Part shown: one piece after another, positions 14,849 through 24,698 of the stretch
Layout: every line of letters begins with the position of its first letter
Position numbering within the stretch: the first letter of the stretch is position 1
From: a virus
Virus record (IMG/VR): IMGVR_UViG_3300045988_107221
Location: 1-44,774 of that record
Length of the DNA stretch: 44,774 bases
Reading direction: 5' to 3' (one strand)
The notes under the pieces: generated by a model
The model's database searches: none
The model's input: the letters and a program-made list of their open reading frames with translations, nothing else
Told to the model about the DNA's origin: nothing
Made by a program: the position numbers and the translations under genes

Positions 14849-15418
14849 TTAATCCTCCTTTTCTATTACTCTTGATGCCCACATGTCTGCAAAATGTAGA
14901 ATCATATAAAGTGGTGTTTCTTTTCCTTGAATCTCATATTTCAACGGACCATAAAGGCCATTGTGATATAAAATCGCATGTTGTTCTTCTTCTGTGAGAT
15001 CAATAAACATGGTAGCAATGACCACACTTCTAATCTCATGTGGAATATTCAATAAATCTGAATTAGTAGTAAATGGTTTTACCTTTGACGGCTTACCATC
15101 TTTCAATATGTTTGGTACATATAATGATTTTCCGAATTGTCCACATTTCCCAAGGTCATGAAGTAATGAACAAATGACTACAGAATCCTGAATCTCATTA
15201 TATTTTGCTCCACCTAACCAAGCTACACCAAGCTTTTCAGCAAGATTTAGAACATTTATGCTATGCTCTGCAAGTCCTCCCTCTTTTGCAAGATGATATG
15301 ACCCGCTACACGGCGCTGTCAGAAATCCAATATTATTCATATAGTCGAGTAATTCAATCACGCCTTCTCTTTTTGTTTTCATAAGATAATCTCGGATAAT
15401 GTCTGCAACATTTTCCAT
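14849..15418 (-). CDS. HD-domain phosphohydrolase
   Basis: Start moved to the ATG at 15418 (RBS AAGGAG), 189 aa. Contains H...HDLGK and a later HNG/HFAD His-Asp pattern. Confidence 0.7.
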   Translation of the reverse strand: MENVADIIRDYLMKTKREGVIELLDYMNNIGFLTAPCSGSYHLAKEGGLAEHSINVLNLAEKLGVAWLGGAKYNEIQDSVVICSLLHDLGKCGQFGKSLYVPNILKDGKPSKVKPFTTNSDLLNIPHEIRSVVIATMFIDLTEEEQHAILYHNGLYGPLKYEIQGKETPLYMILHFADMWASRVIEKED

Positions 15419-15419
15419 A

Positions 15420-15767
15420 TCAAAAACTCCTTTCATTAATCGTTGCGACCAGCGCACGCGCTTGAATGATTCGTTCAGCATTTAACGCCCGAATCATATC
15501 TTTAAACATCTGAAATTGATCGGGATAGAGAATGACCGCATATCCATTCGCCATGCTGTTTATACGGGCTACATTGTATTTTTGCAACTCTGACGGTTTA
15601 CCATTTTGCGCTTTTACTTCAATGGCCACAAAATAACCGTTGATGCACGCCAAAATGTCTGGCACACCGTTCTTTGTCATTCGGTTCGCAAAAAATTTAA
15701 CCTGCCAACCGAAATTATCTTCGATATGTTTTTTTATCTTGTTTTCAAAGTTCTTTTCCTGTGCCAC
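15420..15767 (-). CDS. VRR-NUC domain nuclease
   Basis: 115 aa. GVPDILACINGYFVAIEVKAQNGKPSELQ gives the D...E-x-K nuclease core typical of VRR-NUC. Confidence 0.75.
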   Translation of the reverse strand: MAQEKNFENKIKKHIEDNFGWQVKFFANRMTKNGVPDILACINGYFVAIEVKAQNGKPSELQKYNVARINSMANGYAVILYPDQFQMFKDMIRALNAERIIQARALVATINERSF

Positions 15768-15771
15768 TCTC

Positions 15772-15939
15772 TCACCTCATTTCTGTAAGTAGTACAAACG
15801 CATTATACTTCCAAAAATTCAAATCACCATTTGGACCATTATGCACTATAGTGTCATACCAACTAGCAGCTATCCACATGATGAATACCGCACATCCTAA
15901 AAGAATTGCTTCTTTTATTATTGCTTTAATTATTTTCAT
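15772..15939 (-). CDS. small membrane protein (55 aa, below the ORF-track cutoff)
   Basis: Translated by hand: MKIIKAIIKEAILLGCAVFIMWIAASWYDTIVHNGPNGDLNFWKYNAFVLLTEMR. RBS GGAGG. It has its own promoter (P1) and is in line with the operon. Confidence 0.6.
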   Translation of the reverse strand: MKIIKAIIKEAILLGCAVFIMWIAASWYDTIVHNGPNGDLNFWKYNAFVLLTEMR

Positions 15940-15988: not shown

Positions 15989-16017
15989 TATTATACCACT
16001 ATAGTTGTATAATGTAC
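15989..16017 (-). promoter_or_regulatory. promoter P1 of the TGTACA-N17-TATAAT family with embedded imperfect palindrome
   Basis: Minus strand: TGTACA (16017..16012), a 17-nt spacer TTATACAACTATAGTGG, then TATAAT (15994..15989). This also reads as an extended -10, TGGTATAAT. Confidence 0.65.
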
Positions 16018-18238: not shown

Positions 18239-18296
18239 TTGCCGCAATGGGAATCGAACCCATGACATCATTGCTCTACCACTGAGCTATGCGACA
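18239..18296 (-). ncRNA. tRNA-like element lacking the anticodon arm
   Basis: The minus strand folds as: acceptor 5' strand TGTCGCA, then TA, the D arm GCTC-AGTGGTA-GAGC, a 9-nt linker AATGATGTC, the T arm ATGGG-TTCGATT-CCCAT, acceptor 3' strand TGCGGCA, and discriminator A. The acceptor stem has 7 bp (one G-U). G18/G19, T54-T55-C56 and A58 are conserved. No anticodon stem-loop is possible. Confidence 0.7.
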
Positions 18297-18604: not shown

Positions 18605-18896
18605 ATTATTGCCTTTCTCCACGTTTCGGCGTTGGTCACCGTGTTTTTGTTTACAATATTATTCTACTATAATTTCCAGCATTTGTATATTGACATTTTA
18701 CACAAAAATTTTATTTTATATTAGTTATTTTTACTAATTTCATAAAATCCTTACTTTTTACGCTTTTATTATATTAAGATAATTTCCAATTGACAACACA
18801 AAATGCGTAATTTCTTTACGAGAACATTTGTTCGATTGACTTTGTATATTGCGGATATTATCCTATAATTGTACATATGCACGGGGAGGCGTTAGA

Positions 18897-19244
18897 ATGG
18901 AGGCAGGAGAAGTTATCAAAAAATTGCGTAATGAAAAGAAATTTACGCAATCAGAATTGGGAATTATGCTAGGAGTGAATACATCGTCAATTCAAAAATA
19001 TGAAAGCGGAGCTACCAAAAATCTGAAATTAGAAACAATCAGGGAGTTATGTCATATATTTGATGTACCTCCTCTAGTCTTTGTTTTTCCAGAAATACTA
19101 GATGAAGGTTTCGATGCATATCATGAAAGAATGTTCAAGGACCATATGAAGGCATCACTAAATGTAAATGAAGAAGGTATAAAGAAGATATTTGACTATA
19201 TAAGCGACATTCAATCTATGCCGAAGTATCAAAAGTCAAGATGA
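18897..19244 (+). CDS. XRE-family repressor (CI-like, no S24 peptidase domain)
   Basis: ATG at 18897 with RBS GGGGAGG, 115 aa. HTH FTQSELGIMLGVNTSSIQKYESG. Divergent from the early operon and upstream of int. Confidence 0.75.
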   Translation: MEAGEVIKKLRNEKKFTQSELGIMLGVNTSSIQKYESGATKNLKLETIRELCHIFDVPPLVFVFPEILDEGFDAYHERMFKDHMKASLNVNEEGIKKIFDYISDIQSMPKYQKSR

Positions 19245-19466: not shown

Positions 19467-20471
19467 TTGCGGAGAGCAAATGGAGAAGGTTCAATTTTTA
19501 AGCTAAGCGGTAAACGTCGTAAACCTTACGCCGTAAGAATTACAGTTGGTTATACGAATGAAGGAAAACAGCTATACAAATATGTTGGTTATTATTCCAC
19601 CAAAACAGAAGCCAAAAATGCAATGAGAGAATATCTTGTCAACCCATTCAATTTAGACCATAAGAGCACCAAGCTCAAAGATGTATACGATAGGTGGTCA
19701 GACCAGAGTCAATTGGCCCAAACGACTATGCAGAGTTATGGTTCCGCTTTCAACCAAGCAAAGCAGCTTCACAACATGAGCATGAGAGACATCAAGGCTG
19801 CACACTTGGAAGCTGCTATGGATCAAATGAAACCTCATATGCGCAGCGTGTTTAAAAATGCTATGGGGAAAGTATATACATATGCTATCAAGCACGAGGT
19901 TGTTGATAAGGACCTCATGAGTCTGATCTCAGTGAAAACTACAGTGGAGACAAAAGAGAAAACACCATTCACCTTGGCTGAGATCAACAAACTGAAAACA
20001 TTTAAGCATCCATTAAATGACACCGTTTTCATCCTTTTGTATACGGGATTGCGGATCAATGAATTGCTTGATATTAAATGTGAAAATGTTCACTTGGATG
20101 AACGGTATATGATTGGAGGTAAGAAAACGAAGGCGGGCCAGAATCGAATCATTCCAATTCATGATGCAATTTATCCTTTAATAAAATCAAGATGTGAACA
20201 AGAAAATAAGTATCTGATAACCAAAGATAACAAGAAGATCAATTATGCTACATACAGAATTAGCTATTGGAATAAAATGAACTCTGCACTCGGGTTTAAA
20301 CATACACCGCACGACACACGTCACACATTTACGACATTTGCAGATAGATGCGACGTGCATAAAGTAGCATTGAAGAGAATTTTAGGTCATACGTTGAGCG
20401 ATATGACTGATCATTATACCCATAAAGATCTCGATGAATTACTGGCTGAGATCAATAAAATTGTATATTAA
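19467..20471 (+). CDS. int: tyrosine recombinase / phage integrase
   Basis: 334 aa. TTG start after AAAGGGAGAG. Catalytic pattern TGLRINEL (Arg), HDTRHTF (His-x-x-Arg) and LGHTLSDMTDHYTH (His...Tyr). Confidence 0.9.
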   Translation: MRRANGEGSIFKLSGKRRKPYAVRITVGYTNEGKQLYKYVGYYSTKTEAKNAMREYLVNPFNLDHKSTKLKDVYDRWSDQSQLAQTTMQSYGSAFNQAKQLHNMSMRDIKAAHLEAAMDQMKPHMRSVFKNAMGKVYTYAIKHEVVDKDLMSLISVKTTVETKEKTPFTLAEINKLKTFKHPLNDTVFILLYTGLRINELLDIKCENVHLDERYMIGGKKTKAGQNRIIPIHDAIYPLIKSRCEQENKYLITKDNKKINYATYRISYWNKMNSALGFKHTPHDTRHTFTTFADRCDVHKVALKRILGHTLSDMTDHYTHKDLDELLAEINKIVY

Positions 20472-20500: not shown

Positions 20501-20659
20501 TTAGTATTTAATGCATCTGCCTTTAACGAAATATGCGATCGTATCTCCAAGCATGTTTTCAACTTCAACAGGCTCTCCTGTCTGATCGTGAAACTCTTTA
20601 GCTTCTTTCATTGCTCTTTCTTTTGTCATTGTTCCGTTATTTACTATGATTCTTTTCAT
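20501..20659 (-). CDS. small hypothetical protein (52 aa, below cutoff)
   Basis: Translated by hand: MKRIIVNNGTMTKERAMKEAKEFHDQTGEPVEVENMLGDTIAYFVKGRCIKY. RBS GGAGG. It has its own promoter (P2) and terminator. Confidence 0.6.
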   Translation of the reverse strand: MKRIIVNNGTMTKERAMKEAKEFHDQTGEPVEVENMLGDTIAYFVKGRCIKY

Positions 20660-20709: not shown

Positions 20710-20738
20710 ATTATACAACTAAAGTTGTAGTTTGTACA
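20710..20738 (-). promoter_or_regulatory. promoter P2 (TGTACA-N17-TATAAT) with perfect TACAAC-N4-GTTGTA palindrome
   Basis: Minus strand: TGTACA (20738..20733), a 17-nt spacer AACTACAACTTTAGTTG, then TATAAT (20715..20710). The palindrome spans 20714..20729. Confidence 0.7.
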
Positions 20739-20831
20739 TAGGCAAAATAACCAAAGATTTGATGAGTTTCTTAGTTATTTTGTATATTAAATGTATATTA
20801 TAGATGCTTTTTCATTTGTTTTTATACATTC

Positions 20832-20866: not shown

Positions 20867-21000
20867 ATACATTTTTTAAATTTCCCCAACAAAATTTAAG
20901 AATGTGATAACGTCAACGTTTACGTATCAATTTGTATATTACACGCGTATTGCGGAATAGAAAATGAAAAATGCAAATTGTGATATAATTAAATCATATC

Positions 21001-21037
21001 GTTGTACTATGTACAACCAGCGTTGTACTATTATATT
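21001..21037 (+). promoter_or_regulatory. promoter P6 variant with triple half-site GTTGTAC-TAT-GTACAAC-CAGC-GTTGTAC
   Basis: TGTACA (21010..21015), a 16-nt spacer, then TATATT (21032..21037). An extended -10 (TGATATAAT, 20981..20989) lies just upstream, so two tandem promoters are possible. Confidence 0.5.
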
Positions 21038-21075: not shown

Positions 21076-21210
21076 ATGGAAGATATGACACGGTTGGAAA
21101 TACTTACATTATTGTTGTCGCTCAAAGGTTTATTGGAAACCGACAATTCTGAGAAAGCTTTAGAAGTGATCAACAACGTTATTGCTGAAGCACAACGAAA
21201 AGAATTATGA
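21076..21210 (+). CDS. small acidic hypothetical protein (44 aa, below cutoff)
   Basis: Translated by hand: MEDMTRLEILTLLLSLKGLLETDNSEKALEVINNVIAEAQRKEL. Strong RBS AGGAGGGGAG. Confidence 0.55.
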   Translation: MEDMTRLEILTLLLSLKGLLETDNSEKALEVINNVIAEAQRKEL

Positions 21211-21338: not shown

Positions 21339-21366
21339 AGGAACCCTTGCGGGTTCCTTTTATTAT
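21339..21366. terminator. bidirectional terminator
   Basis: Stem AGGAACCC-TTGC-GGGTTCCT followed by TTTTATT. It overlaps the stop of the convergent 289-aa gene. Confidence 0.7.
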
Positions 21367-22232
21367 TTTGTTTTGCGTGATGGTGTAGTAAATGCTCTCT
21401 CGACACTCCATCCCATTTTATAAATACGCCCATATAATGTATTTGGAGAAATTCCGAGTTCTTTACCCCAAGCGCAGATGTTTTGAGCTTTTCCATCAAA
21501 CTCAATTAATGCGCCACGCTTCGGAGTCGGTTTGTGTCCTTCCTGATCTTTAATCTCAACATTGATTTTATAACCGTCAGCCTTGAAAAGACCAAGTAGG
21601 TATCCTTTAAGAATAGATTTTCTTACTCTCTTCATTGCACCTGGTGCCTCACCTCCTGCACAATCGGGTTCATATTTAGAGTTCATTGCTTCATCTAAGA
21701 TTTCATTGAAAGCATCATTTGTAATCCAATTGTCGAATTCCTCTTGAGTCATTTCTCCATCTATCATTGCGTTATCATTTCCACCGATAATCCAATTATA
21801 AGCGTTTTCAATATTTTTCTTTGCAATCAGTTCGTCTTTATTTTGTATAGCCTTAATTTTTGTAGGTCTTTCAGGTTTAACCTCAATAGGTTCTTCAGTC
21901 TCTACCTCAGTAGGTTTTTCCTCGATAGGTTCTTCTTCGATAGGTTTTTCCTCACCAATCAACTGAATTTTGCCAGCCTTATATTTTTTGAGGAATTTTA
22001 CAAAATCATTTTTTGGACCATACTCTGCCCAATGTTTCTGATAATGTTCAAAGAGTTTATTTTCTTTTTCGATTTCTTCTTCTCTTTCGGCGGTTTCTTC
22101 TTCACTCATATTCTGGATTTTTTCAATCTCAACAATGAGTTCTGCTTTTTTTAAGTTCCACCAATTTTTAACTTTAAGCTCTTTTGCAATTTCCTTAAGT
22201 TCTTTGCTTGTCATCTCTCTTAATTCTTTCAT
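21363..22232 (-). CDS. hypothetical protein: Rho_N/SAP-like N-terminus, acidic Pro/Glu repeat linker, C-terminal HTH-like domain
   Basis: 289 aa. N-terminal MTSKELKEIAKELKVKNWWNLKKAELI. Linker repeat EEKPIEEEPIEEKPTEVETEEPIEVKPERP. The C-terminal ICAWGKELGISPNTLYGRIYKMGWSVERAFTTP is a DNA-binding motif common at the ends of phage nuclease or regulator proteins. Confidence 0.65.
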   Translation of the reverse strand: MKELREMTSKELKEIAKELKVKNWWNLKKAELIVEIEKIQNMSEEETAEREEEIEKENKLFEHYQKHWAEYGPKNDFVKFLKKYKAGKIQLIGEEKPIEEEPIEEKPTEVETEEPIEVKPERPTKIKAIQNKDELIAKKNIENAYNWIIGGNDNAMIDGEMTQEEFDNWITNDAFNEILDEAMNSKYEPDCAGGEAPGAMKRVRKSILKGYLLGLFKADGYKINVEIKDQEGHKPTPKRGALIEFDGKAQNICAWGKELGISPNTLYGRIYKMGWSVERAFTTPSRKTK

Positions 22233-22254
22233 GTTATATTCTCCTTTTCCTGCG

Positions 22255-22372
22255 AGCTCCAGATTCGCGTTTCTAGATGTTTTTATATATTAGTCATATA
22301 AATTATCATGAAACATATTAAAATGAGAATTTGATATGAATCTGAATGTCTCACGCATATTCATATTGTTTT
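22255..22372. repeat. copy B of the ~115-bp inverted repeat (partner 2842..2958)
   Basis: See 2842..2958. Here the repeat forms most of the ~170-nt leader between promoter P3 and the 289-aa gene. Confidence 0.75.
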
Positions 22373-22403
22373 TAGTTTCATAAGCTCTTTAACTTATATT
22401 CTT

Positions 22404-22432
22404 ATTATACAACAAAAGTTGTATCTTGTACA
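22404..22432 (-). promoter_or_regulatory. promoter P3 (TGTACA-N17-TATAAT) with perfect TACAAC-N4-GTTGTA palindrome
   Basis: Minus strand: TGTACA (22432..22427), spacer AGATACAACTTTTGTTG, then TATAAT (22409..22404). The palindrome spans 22408..22423. Confidence 0.7.
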
Positions 22433-22554
22433 CTGAAAGTTGCATAAAAGGAAGAAGTTTAAACCTTCTGTCAATTGTATCTTTGAAGGTGTAACCAAGG
22501 CGAATTGCAAGAACATTCGTAAGAGATAAGCTTTATTATATATACAACTATTAG

Positions 22555-22583
22555 TGTACATAGTACAACTATCGTCATATAAT
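22555..22583 (+). promoter_or_regulatory. promoter P4 (TGTACA-N17-TATAAT), part of a ~105-bp promoter-leader cassette at 22527..22631
   Basis: TGTACA (22555..22560), spacer TAGTACAACTATCGTCA, then TATAAT (22578..22583). A second TACAAC half-site at 22543..22548 pairs across the -35. Confidence 0.7.
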
Positions 22584-22628
22584 AAGAATATAAGCTAATC
22601 GCTTAATAACTTCTTAGGAGAGATTAAA

Positions 22629-22802
22629 ATGATTGAAAATGAATTATTGCTTGACTTACTGTTTGAACTCAGAGAACGTGAGGCTGATTATATTATTGAG
22701 AATGGTTGGTTTATGACATACCTCGGTAACGAGCGCATTCGCTTCAGAATTGAAGACGAAGAACAGACATGGTGGTTGTTAGATGAAATATGGAATTGGT
22801 AA
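22629..22802 (+). CDS. small acidic protein (57 aa, below cutoff)
   Basis: Translated by hand: MIENELLLDLLFELREREADYIIENGWFMTYLGNERIRFRIEDEEQTWWLLDEIWNW. RBS AGGAGAG. By my count 15 D/E against 5 K/R. Confidence 0.65.
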   Translation: MIENELLLDLLFELREREADYIIENGWFMTYLGNERIRFRIEDEEQTWWLLDEIWNW

Positions 22803-22803
22803 A

Positions 22804-22829
22804 CTGAGGGCAACCTCAGTTTTCTTTTT
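22804..22829 (+). terminator. rho-independent terminator
   Basis: Stem CTGAGG-GCAA-CCTCAG followed by TTTTCTTTTT. Confidence 0.75.
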
Positions 22830-22878
22830 ATATCTAATTGTCAGAAGATATAAGCTTTCTATATCATACAACTTTTAT

Positions 22879-22907
22879 TGTACATAATACAACTTACGTT
22901 GTATAAT
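22879..22907 (+). promoter_or_regulatory. promoter P5 (TGTACA-N17-TATAAT), part of the second copy of the promoter-leader cassette at 22851..22957
   Basis: TGTACA (22879..22884), spacer TAATACAACTTACGTTG, then TATAAT (22902..22907), with a perfect TACAAC-TTAC-GTTGTA palindrome. The upstream ATACAAC-TTTTA-TTGTA spans the -35. Confidence 0.7.
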
Positions 22908-22954
22908 TATATTATAAGCTAATCAAGCTTAATAACTTTTTGGGAGAGATTAAA

Positions 22955-23143
22955 ATGATAGACAAATTCGAAGAAATGCTTCACAACATGTATGGAAAAG
23001 GTTATGAAGATATGATTGATGTATTTATGTATGAATTACATCATCATTATAATGATGATCTTGATCTAGATAAATTATTCATCGAGTTTGGTAAGTATCT
23101 CGAAGATTGCGAGATCATGCGTGCAGCATTCAATCAAAAATAA
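22955..23143 (+). CDS. small acidic protein (62 aa)
   Basis: ATG at 22955 follows GGGAGAGATTAAA, the same leader as at 22629. The ORF-track TTG at 22940 is rejected. By my count 15 D/E against 6 K/R. Confidence 0.65.
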   Translation: MIDKFEEMLHNMYGKGYEDMIDVFMYELHHHYNDDLDLDKLFIEFGKYLEDCEIMRAAFNQK

Positions 23144-23195
23144 AAATGAGGGGCTTCGGCCCCTTACCAAATAAATACCAAAAGGGGATTTTCAA

Positions 23196-23474
23196 ATGAA
23201 ATTTAAGCTTGGCCAAGTAGTAATCACAAAAGGTGTAAATGTTAAAATTAGTGAAAGTATAGAATTTTCCAAGTTCTTCCTTGAATCAATTGCAAAATAT
23301 CGTAATTGCGATTGGGGAAACCTTGGTAACGAGGATTGGGAAATGAATGACCAAGCCGTCAAAAATGGTGACGATAGAATTTTCGCTCGGTATAATAATC
23401 AAGAGGGCGACATCTATATAATTACGGAATGGGACAGATCAATTACTACGATATTGTTTCCATCTGAATATTAA
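23196..23474 (+). CDS. small protein of the CDWG...TTILFPSEY type (family common on plasmids/ICEs, function unknown)
   Basis: 92 aa, RBS AAAGGGGA. The motif NCDWGNLGNEDWEMND...IYIITEWDRSITTILFPSEY is recalled from small ORFs that accompany anti-restriction genes on mobile elements. Not verified. Confidence 0.6.
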   Translation: MKFKLGQVVITKGVNVKISESIEFSKFFLESIAKYRNCDWGNLGNEDWEMNDQAVKNGDDRIFARYNNQEGDIYIITEWDRSITTILFPSEY

Positions 23475-23486
23475 AAGGAGGAAATT

Positions 23487-23723
23487 ATGGCAAAAAAATT
23501 AAAAGAAATGAGGCAAGCCGCCGGCTTGTCTCAATCCCAATTGGCTGAAAAAGCCAACATGAATGTCAGAACACTCCAGCACTATGAGCAGGGAAGTAAG
23601 ATTTTTGATCATGCTAGAATTGATACAATCTTGCGTGTGTGTTTGGCATTAAATTGTAAATTTGAGGATATTATTGAGAATCAAGAATATATTGATTTGA
23701 TTAAACGATATAAAGATTCTTGA
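23487..23723 (+). CDS. XRE-family HTH protein (Aca-like position)
   Basis: 78 aa. HTH LSQSQLAEKANMNVRTLQHYEQG. RBS AAGGAGG. Last gene of the plus-strand moron operon. Confidence 0.8.
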   Translation: MAKKLKEMRQAAGLSQSQLAEKANMNVRTLQHYEQGSKIFDHARIDTILRVCLALNCKFEDIIENQEYIDLIKRYKDS

Positions 23724-23749
23724 AATTTGCATGGGTTACACTGACAAAA

Positions 23750-23780
23750 ATAAAAAGGACCATTAAGGTCCTTTTTATTT
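23750..23780. terminator. bidirectional terminator between the convergent moron operon and tail operon
   Basis: Stem AAAGGACC-attaa-GGTCCTTT flanked by an A-run and a T-run. Confidence 0.8.
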
Positions 23781-23795
23781 TAAATATATTCAATT

Positions 23796-24698
23796 TTAAG
23801 CTTGACCAATCTTTGATTTTAAGGCTGTGATTTCGAGAATATTTTCAGCTTCAAGCTCTGCGTTCGTGTGGATTTCAACGGGTGATTTTGATGTGTCAAG
23901 AATATAATCATAGCCCTCTGTTAGTACTACACCATTGACATTGATGAATAAAATATCGCTTGAGGCGTACGTATAACCATCCATATCGAGTGGGAATATT
24001 CCATTTTTACTACCAATATTGATTGCTTTATGATATTTTTCGATGTATGTATTGACCTGTAGTTGATCCGTAAGAGCGGAAAACCATGTGTCAAACGCAC
24101 TTTCTTGCTGCTGCTGCCATGTCTGCATTTGCTGGTAAAATTCCTCATACGCTGTCTGCCATTGTAAAAACAATTTACTTGTGTCCACCTGCTGCACGAT
24201 GCCAGTCACCCAACCGCATACATCGTTATCCGGTCGGGTATCTTCGATATTAGCCTGACTGATCGACGTTACACCACGTCCAATGTAAATATAAGCAAGG
24301 CACATTTCTTTAATGGTTTCCGAATTTGTTATGATCGGTTTTACAGGTGCCGTTGCATTTTCACCGTCTTTTGTTGTGATTATGATAGTACGTGCTGATA
24401 AATCTAATCGAATTATAATAGCCGTATAGCGATTTAATGTGACGTGTGCAGCATTAATTATGAGTGGATAAGCAGCGGTGTTTTTAATCCACTTCGAATC
24501 GATAATAGCCCTACCCGCTCCTACTTGTACCTGCATACCTGTGCCGGCTAAAACCTGCATCGCATCGTCCACACTCTCATATACTCCGTCACTCACGAGA
24601 CCCTCAAAGTATGTACTCATTTGGTCCGCATTATATGTACGATCATAAGTTCCGTCTGATTGTTTTATTGCATTAAAAAATCCATATGTAATAGCCAT
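23796..24698 (-). CDS. distal tail / baseplate structural protein (last gene of the late operon)
   Basis: 300 aa, immediately after the Tal-like gene. No enzymatic motif recognised. Confidence 0.55.
   Translation of the reverse strand: MAITYGFFNAIKQSDGTYDRTYNADQMSTYFEGLVSDGVYESVDDAMQVLAGTGMQVQVGAGRAIIDSKWIKNTAAYPLIINAAHVTLNRYTAIIIRLDLSARTIIITTKDGENATAPVKPIITNSETIKEMCLAYIYIGRGVTSISQANIEDTRPDNDVCGWVTGIVQQVDTSKLFLQWQTAYEEFYQQMQTWQQQQESAFDTWFSALTDQLQVNTYIEKYHKAINIGSKNGIFPLDMDGYTYASSDILFINVNGVVLTEGYDYILDTSKSPVEIHTNAELEAENILEITALKSKIGQA

Follow-up and report, generated by a model that had tools for sequence, protein, structure and literature searches.

What is a short block of tiny genes doing on the plus strand of a phage genome whose minus strand carries nearly all of the long open reading frames (ORFs)? 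The DNA in question is the IMG/VR virus record IMGVR_UViG_3300045988_107221, analysed over its whole length of 44,774 nucleotides (the window), and the block is an island at 22527-23780 that encodes three small proteins, ORF1, ORF2 and ORF3, followed by a helix-turn-helix (HTH) protein of the XRE type. A preliminary description had read the island as an anti-defence locus autoregulated by this HTH, in the manner of the anti-CRISPR (acr) loci with their anti-CRISPR-associated (aca) repressor genes. Our best explanation, to which we give a probability of roughly 0.45, is that it is an autoregulated accessory operon of acr/aca-like build, with cargo that aids the establishment of the phage, probably by countering host defence. 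The components of this reading differ in strength: the organisation works like that of acr-aca loci and the regulatory mechanism is well supported, whereas the anti-defence role of the cargo is plausible from its genomic context. The operon itself is a real, conserved and probably self-repressed accessory unit with a duplicated promoter cassette.

The four genes follow one another on the plus strand. ORF1 (22629-22802; 57 aa, isoelectric point (pI) 4.06, with five tryptophans) and ORF2 (22955-23143; 62 aa, pI 4.55) have 15 aspartates and glutamates each against five and six lysines and arginines, respectively, and ORF3 (23196-23474; 92 aa, pI 4.73) is mildly acidic with 15 against 11; the HTH (23487-23723; 78 aa, pI 8.6) starts 12 nt past the end of ORF3. 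These sizes and charges are those first described, and the ORF coordinates likewise place the island between the end of the tail operon and a 289-aa gene. In comparisons with relatives all four ORFs are under purifying selection (dN/dS 0.03-0.23 overall, 0.03-0.18 for ORF1 and 0.10-0.21 for ORF2), which marks them as genes and not chance ORFs. The 78-aa protein passes the Pfam HTH_3 model at 42.1 bits against a cutoff of 23 (E 8.8e-11), bearing out its assignment to the XRE class.

ORF1 and ORF2 each stand behind their own plus-strand copy of a promoter-leader cassette, which comprises the promoter, the leader and the ribosome-binding site (RBS) and runs up to the ATG. The first copy lies at 22527-22631 and the second at 22851-22957; they agree at 91 of 108 alignment columns (84%), RBS and ATGAT included, very close to the approximately 85% over about 105 bp that had been estimated. 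A promoter scan finds TGTACA-17-TATAAT in both (22555-22583 and 22879-22907), and each promoter carries two 16-bp dyads, O1 and O2, of the type TACAAC-N4-GTTGTA. In cassette 1, O1 (22543-22558; two mismatches) lies over the -35 box TGTACA (22555-22560) and O2 (22564-22579; TACAAC-TATC-GTCATA, two mismatches) abuts the -10 box TATAAT (22578-22583). In cassette 2, O1 (22867-22882; one mismatch) again lies over the -35 box (22879-22884), and O2 (22888-22903) is perfect and adjoins the -10 box at 22902-22907. The start-to-start distance from O1 to O2 is 21 bp in each plus-strand promoter, that is two helical turns. The palindrome that the preliminary description had placed at both -10 boxes is hence exact in cassette 2 alone, and the second pair of half-sites that it had seen over the -35 boxes exists in both promoters in imperfect form. 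Across the window there are 12 such dyads with at most two mismatches against 2.2 expected, a number reached by none of 100 shuffles.

Does the HTH act on these dyads? We consider it likely that it represses its own operon through them, because across its homologues the centre of the dyad (TACNNC) changes along with the recognition helix, and because the layout of dyad, cargo and HTH recurs in distant homologues; that this particular 78-aa protein binds DNA we infer from the same comparison. First, in the main clade of relatives (our locus numbers, L001 onward, are given where loci must be told apart) the helix NVRTLQHYEQ (NVRT..H) goes with the half-site TACAAC, which makes up 109 of 145 half-sites, while the helix SLRTLQHYEQ (SLRT..H) of L110/L216 goes with TACCAC. 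An independent protein with an SLRT..H helix (L265) also has CCAC half-sites (TACCAC), and the NLRT helix of the L001 type is accompanied by a mixture of TACAAC and TACCAC. Among the more distant homologues, SVRV..N helices of several lineages (L230-L248, L234, L240, L269) pair with TACATC, NLKT..A (L252) with TACTAC and KFRA..C (L231) with TACTGC. Second, the homologues outside the clade, which are 40-57% identical to the HTH and come without ORF1, ORF2 or ORF3, each have one perfect TACNNC-N4-GNNGTA dyad per locus, at the promoter of an operon that ends in the HTH; by our own estimate, such a perfect dyad arises by chance about 0.01 times per 10 kb. In these distant loci the dyad mostly sits between a -35 box TTGACx and the -10 box, as in the L240 promoter, TTGACA-aag-TACATCAAATGATGTA-TAAT, and the same layout is found in L269 and L265, matching the window. 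One to three unrelated ORFs, mostly small and acidic (pI 4.1-5.5) and with no Pfam domain, lie between the dyad and the HTH. The phage with the 67%-identical terminase (see below) has neither the HTH nor the dyad. Within the clade, ORF3 is directly 5' of the HTH in all 16 IMG/VR loci (L098-L113) and in 17 of 19 metagenome loci (L205-L223), the exceptions being L214, which ends at the contig edge, and L217, in which no ORF3 was detected beside the HTH.

Some of the distant loci show further arrangements of the HTH. In L238 (4672-5225), which belongs to a gut contig group, the genes for the HTH and for an acidic protein of some 92 aa share 4 nt (ATGTGA), and the two are fused as one 167-aa ORF in L242 (4722-5225), L230 and L234. 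Beside the L238 HTH, on the opposite strand, is the gene of a 224-aa protein whose motif HELGH is of the HExxH type. L257 (3868-5204) has a more distant homologue of the HTH, fused to a longer N-terminal region; it comes after a DUF3990 protein, and the dyad in front of them, TACTCC-CACA-GGAGTA, is perfect.

Going beyond the first reading of the sequence, we found that the dyad is not private to the island. A third copy of the promoter and operator lies in inverted orientation at 22404-22444 on the minus strand, again as TGTACA-17-TATAAT, with a perfect dyad TACAAC-AAAA-GTTGTA (22408-22423) and a degenerate one upstream of it (22429-22444); the inverted repeat that contains it (22389-22446) is 81% complementary to both plus-strand cassettes. 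This copy precedes the 289-aa gene (21363-22232, minus strand), a Rho_N-domain gene that borders the island on one side, via a leader of about 165 nt (22233-22403, minus strand), so that the island starts at a divergent promoter pair. Relatives have a like spacing for this leader (2105 to 2280 in L086). The C-terminus of the 289-aa protein matches PHROGs annotated as HNH-endonuclease-associated, on which account the protein may bind DNA. Elsewhere in the window, a perfect dyad at 20714-20729 (minus strand) forms part of a promoter before a 52-aa gene (20501-20659), and another at 21012-21027 (plus strand), with an extra upstream half-site, lies before a 44-aa gene (21076-21210). Finally, a promoter with a dyad with one mismatch at 15994-16009 (minus strand) lies inside the early gene block, ahead of three minus-strand genes: a 55-aa hydrophobic protein (15772-15939), a 115-aa protein (15420-15767) that, read by eye, resembles nucleases of the VRR-NUC type, and a 210-aa protein (14849-15481) in which we likewise read by eye an HDLGK motif. 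As the operator also stands at promoters outside the island, one of them serving early genes, the HTH would be a wider regulator than an Aca of this operon alone.

Other candidate binders of the dyads fare less well. The CI-like repressor of the phage is less likely to be the binder because the intergenic region between the CI-like and Cro-like genes has no dyad of the TACAAC-N4-GTTGTA type. A host LexA box (consensus GAAC-N4-GTTC) was rejected: the half-site here is CAAC. That same intergenic region has two perfect copies of TTTGTATATTG (18682-18692 and 18841-18851), of which two further copies with one mismatch lie upstream of the 21012 promoter (20779-20789 and 20931-20941); this candidate CI operator is not enriched across the genome (five copies against 2.7 expected).

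How, then, did the operon come to have two nearly identical promoters? ORF1 and ORF2 have close homologues only, with 14 clusters at 77% identity or more and four clusters, respectively, in a set of 5.8 billion proteins. An iterative Jackhmmer search of the fetched loci recovers a diverged ORF1 upstream of ORF3 and the HTH in most loci of the clade, and ORF2 in a subset of them (L086-L095, L007, L098-L101, L103 and L106); the same search finds no ORF2 in phages of the L001 type. In the latter the order is promoter, ORF1-like gene, stem-loop, ORF3 and HTH, whereas the window has an extra unit: a terminator belonging to ORF1 is followed by a second copy of the promoter, then by ORF2 and the stem-loop. 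We propose from this comparison that the duplicated promoter-leader marks a later insertion of the ORF2 cassette into an older ORF1-ORF3-HTH operon. Other relatives are arranged differently again. L111 (1291-2775) has two ORF1 paralogues and ORF2 on the opposite strand, L086-L093 have additional genes of 55 or 79 aa, and in L094 (1-5195) the whole island is oriented as the tail genes are, that is inverted relative to the window. Furthermore, the accessory regions of relatives hold dozens of copies of the promoter and dyad before small genes, including ParE-type toxin modules. The repeated promoters are thus regulatory units and, plausibly, also recombination sites at which cassettes would be shuffled and inverted. 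A ParE-type toxin gene with a small partner gene occurs in this same accessory region at 5152-5593 of L001 and 101-379 of L090, and in L001 it lies directly behind a promoter and dyad of this type (TACAAC-CTTC-GTGGTATAAT).

The boundaries of the transcription units are also visible. Past ORF1 lies a plus-strand intrinsic terminator (22801-22832) made of a hairpin with a 9-bp stem (22801-22822; dG -13.8, z -4.7) followed by UUUUCUUUUU, and the first unit does end cleanly, as had been claimed. At the other end, a bidirectional terminator (23747-23781; dG -18.6, z -5.9) with a perfect 15-bp stem set between an A tract and a T tract is common to the island and the virion-structural operon that converges on it. 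Just 5' of ORF3 the plus strand has a GC stem capped by a UUCG tetraloop (23147-23166). This stem-loop, with a UUCG or UACG loop, is kept in relatives whatever gene precedes it: the stem is perfect and at least 6 bp long in 26 of 32 distinct upstream segments, and its six variants all remain complementary. In most phages no U tract follows it on the plus strand, while read along the minus strand it has the form of a terminator; it may stabilise the upstream message, damp the expression of ORF3 and the HTH, or stop antisense transcription. An AAGC/GCTT hairpin considered for the leaders was dropped, as the folded leaders show no significant structure (z about -0.3).

The positive pointer to what the cargo does is the genomic context of ORF3, which belongs to a very large family of mobile elements. 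A profile search gathers 9,113 clusters (at 50% identity) when the limit is E<=1e-3 and still 4,809 when it is E<=1e-10, and homologues turn up on 242 IMG/VR contigs and at over 592 places in the genomes of GTDB, spanning Clostridia, Bacteroidota and Proteobacteria. They share the motif DWG...D...N...ITEWDRS.TTILFPSEY. In other phages the family is found among the early genes, beside SSB, helicase, ParB-methylase and Bro-N genes; it is also present in 171 plasmids, 78 of them conjugative. In two Vibrio MOBF plasmids the homologue lies near traI in a same-strand block with ArdC, a ParB-like gene, RadC and DndB. The 130 non-redundant genes flanking family members include RadC (three), a DUF6094 methyltransferase (two), ArdC, Tad3 and an N6/N4 methylase, with SSB and recombinases also recurring. 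HTH_3 occurs in one of the 130, the HTH partner being confined to the close clade. Anti-defence genes are enriched in the leading regions of plasmids (PMC11541004), and since the ORF3 family combines phage early genes with genes of conjugative plasmid leading regions, a role for the cargo in establishment suggests itself. The link to anti-defence is made by the neighbours, and is guilt by association and not proof.

The family has so far escaped description under its own name. It has no Pfam, PHROG or NCBIfam model, literature searches with its motif strings and with DUF7145 returned no papers, and ten longer proteins with a C-terminal ORF3 domain have no Pfam domain in the extra part. The AlphaFold2 model of ORF3 is very confident (pLDDT 96.5), and a Foldseek search of it against BFVD returns three unnamed viral proteins only. 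An identity as an SRCR domain was discarded, the PDB sequence and profile matches to it being spurious and confined to the DWG motif. In RefSeq, the plasmid homologues bear the name 'type I restriction endonuclease subunit M', apparently a mis-annotation that has spread from record to record. HsdM has about 500 aa and an N6-adenine methyltransferase domain, against 92 aa for ORF3 and about 107-111 aa for the annotated plasmid homologues, and no methylase domain was found in ORF3 or in 40 family members. Mislabelled homologues of 88-111 aa are seen at L096 7929-8264 (NZ_CP025540.1) and in about 30 other Vibrio and Photobacterium plasmids.

Taken together, these data can be cast as the following scenario, in which both the timing of expression and the anti-defence activity are what we infer. 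Upon entry of the phage, the two near-identical sigma-A-type promoters would fire and express the small, very acidic ORF1 and ORF2, and read-through past the conserved UUCG stem-loop would yield ORF3 and the HTH. As the HTH accumulates, it would bind as dimers to the two dyads of each promoter, with O1 covering the -35 box and O2, 21 bp away, lying between the -35 and -10 boxes. Bound in this way, the HTH would switch off the operon that encodes it, the divergent promoter before the 289-aa gene and no fewer than three further promoters of this type. The cargo, including the ORF2 cassette probably added to the older operon together with a duplicated promoter-leader, would most likely help the incoming phage to establish itself, probably against host defence.

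Several observations weigh against this explanation. ORF1, ORF2 and ORF3 have no match in Pfam, PHROGs, NCBIfam or PADLOC, scans in which the island proteins yielded generic HTH matches only. PADLOC specifically has no match for ORF1-3, the 289-aa protein or two neighbouring small proteins, and only generic HTH models for the 78-aa protein. In the searches made, then, no island protein matches a known anti-defence, defence or toxin family; this agrees with the earlier statement that the three small proteins could not be assigned to a named family, and the sequence, profile and structure searches of this analysis leave them so, with no convincing PDB fold for ORF1 or ORF3. ORF1 is predicted to fold as a helix, three strands and a helix, with a pLDDT of 91.6 for the best model and 53-89 for the others; the five models disagree, and Foldseek finds no PDB match. 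The ORF3 model has no significant PDB fold by Foldseek either, the best being RelE/YoeB/HigB-like at E 0.18. Moreover, about 20 invariant or near-invariant polar residues of ORF3 are conserved across phyla, a conservation that looks more like that of an enzyme or ligand-binding protein than that of a fast-evolving inhibitor. On the regulatory side, the independent switches of helix and dyad are few, in about five or six lineages, and the same operator precedes ordinary early genes (at 15994) and, in relatives, ParE-type toxin modules, so that the regulon is not specifically anti-defence. Accordingly, of the two halves of the original claim, autoregulation is sustained by the covariation of helix and dyad and by the recurring layout, while the anti-defence half found no counterpart among known families.

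The last point against it is position. The island is where morons are classically found, beside the integrase and the CI-like repressor, and prophage-expressed genes that benefit the host are expected there too. The CI-like HTH gene (18849-19244) and the integrase (19467-20471), both on the plus strand, belong to the lysogeny module and lie opposite minus-strand genes of Cro-like and Xis-like type. The island is placed between this module and the virion-structural operon, whose last gene (23796-24698, minus strand) borders it on its other side, and it is the only sizeable plus-strand block of the window outside the lysogeny module. It could thus be a prophage moron array, that is a set of accessory genes expressed in the lysogen for superinfection exclusion, host fitness or addiction, with the HTH as their dedicated regulator and not a feedback repressor of the early phase. 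The build of promoter-gene-terminator units agrees with such an array, as do the GC content of the island (31.7% against 37.8% for the genome) and the ParE-type toxin modules and other tiny genes that relatives have in this part of the genome behind promoters of the same type. However, the relatives of ORF3 lie in early replication modules of phages and leading regions of plasmids, the dyads over both promoter boxes point to tight shut-off and not to constitutive expression, and one promoter of the same type is inside the early lytic gene block. We regard a moron array as unlikely, though it comes slightly ahead of the other alternatives.

The promoter in the early block, on the other hand, is what one would expect if the cargo were early host-takeover or establishment factors unrelated to immunity, directed at host replication, transcription or the SOS response, with the HTH acting in Cro-like fashion as a delayed shut-off of a class of early promoters. 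The conservation of ORF3 across phyla would fit a conserved cellular or nucleic-acid target, and SSB, helicase and RadC are among the neighbours of its family. Yet variable small acidic cargo followed by a conserved HTH is a hallmark of counter-defence loci, as are neighbours such as ArdC, Tad3 and orphan methylases, and nothing positive points to a specific host target; we therefore rank takeover next, as an improbable account. That ORF3 and the HTH are instead a HigBA-like type II toxin-antitoxin pair, toxin first and XRE antitoxin second, autoregulated through the dyads, is very improbable: the pair is tight and invariant in the clade with its 12-nt gap, the best PDB folds for ORF3 are RelE/YoeB/HigB toxins and the HTH weakly matches the antitoxin models HipB and HigA, but those fold matches are non-significant (E 0.18-0.6, TM 0.46-0.51, none at E<=0.001), ORF3 is acidic unlike RelE-type toxins, most family members stand alone without the HTH partner seen in this clade, and there is no PADLOC or Pfam toxin match.

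As to the phage itself, it is a temperate gut phage, and the window looks like the genome, whole or almost so, of a temperate siphovirus-like phage. Its large terminase shares 67% identity with the enzyme of a human-faecal phage contig that carries no annotation, and 44% with the terminases of Butyrivibrio phages. Transcription of the island runs against the flanking late operon. A nucleotide similarity search of 50,697 phage records gave no DNA match to the island or the late region, and no close prophage turned up in the scan of GTDB genomes. Between the Cro-like gene and an 87-aa gene lies a tRNA-like element (18239-18296, minus strand), a 58-nt Rfam match that covers the whole model and scores 48 bits where the gathering score is 29; ARAGORN finds no tRNA at any position of the window, and the element may be a truncated tRNA or the remnant of an attachment site.

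If we return to the autoregulated operon of acr/aca-like build, a bolder version of it can be formulated, which we hold only tentatively and think rather doubtful as a whole. According to this version, the 78-aa protein would be the founder of an Aca-like repressor family with a readable code, wherein the central NN of TACNNC-N4-GNNGTA is determined by the residues with which the recognition helix begins and by those in its middle; the family would govern a shuffling array of promoter-gene cassettes in this phage lineage, and ORF3 would represent a huge counter-defence or establishment family of about 9,000 clusters that RefSeq mislabels as a restriction subunit. What most deserves following is the operator code together with the ORF3 family. 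In gut Firmicutes phages and other mobile elements the counter-defence genes known so far are few, and were the HTH of the Aca type, TACNNC-N4-GNNGTA between the -35 and -10 boxes would be a search handle for cargo genes in them. ORF3 is the larger prize, with thousands of clusters, no Pfam model, a confident predicted fold unlike solved structures and a consistent place beside anti-restriction genes; a function for it would give meaning to a very common gene and remove an annotation error that is widespread. Additionally, the promoter copies, duplicated and inverted, hint at simple means by which such phages may add, swap and invert small gene cassettes.

Finally, the island may be set beside the systems that it most resembles. 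In acr-aca loci, for which acrIF-aca1 of Pseudomonas phage JBD30 and acr-aca2 of Pectobacterium phage ZF40 served as comparators, Aca repressors bind inverted repeats in the acr promoters (PMC6765145, PMC9410906) and are predicted to control neighbouring operons as well (PMC13551039); a conserved HTH at the end of the operon, with small acidic cargo that varies, is the pattern through which Acrs were discovered via Aca (PMC9410906). The island shares with them a strong promoter, small, often acidic and fast-swapping cargo and a conserved small HTH at the 3' end. The HTH stays terminal while the genes upstream of it vary, from ORF1, with or without ORF2, and ORF3 in the clade to unrelated acidic ORFs in the distant homologues. 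It also shares inverted repeats that overlap the promoter boxes, self-repression by the HTH (here predicted) and regulator sites at neighbouring operons. It differs in that none of its cargo genes is a known Acr or anti-defence protein, in that its operator stands over at least six promoters, one of them for ordinary early genes, and in that its promoter-leader is duplicated in tandem and once more inverted. Nor does any Aca-named PDB chain match its HTH in single-sequence or profile searches, at E<=0.01 or at E<=1, a comparison that covered the families with solved structures (all PDB sequences) and that speaks against membership in one of those Aca families.

Small dimeric XRE repressors bind short dyads inside promoters. 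With CylR2, 434 Cro, the controller (C) proteins of restriction-modification systems and the Xre-family regulator of ICEBs1 the HTH has its size in common (66-82 aa), and its best sequence matches among solved structures are 3mlf, CylR2 (2xiu), 7t8i, C.BclI and 434 Cro. This likeness goes no further than generic HTH_3 similarity (E 1e-4 to 1e-2), while operators of the family TACNNC-N4-GNNGTA, like the gene context, are peculiar to this group. Homologues of ORF3 keep the same neighbourhood and orientation as ArdA, ArdC, PsiB, SSB and orphan methylases in conjugative plasmids and phage early modules, although neither in sequence nor in fold does ORF3 resemble any of these leading- and early-region establishment genes. 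Lastly, the ORF1 unit resembles a phage moron in having its own promoter and terminator, in running antisense to the late operon and in its lower GC content; unlike morons, the units here share one operator and one repressor and are joined into a single repressor-terminated operon.

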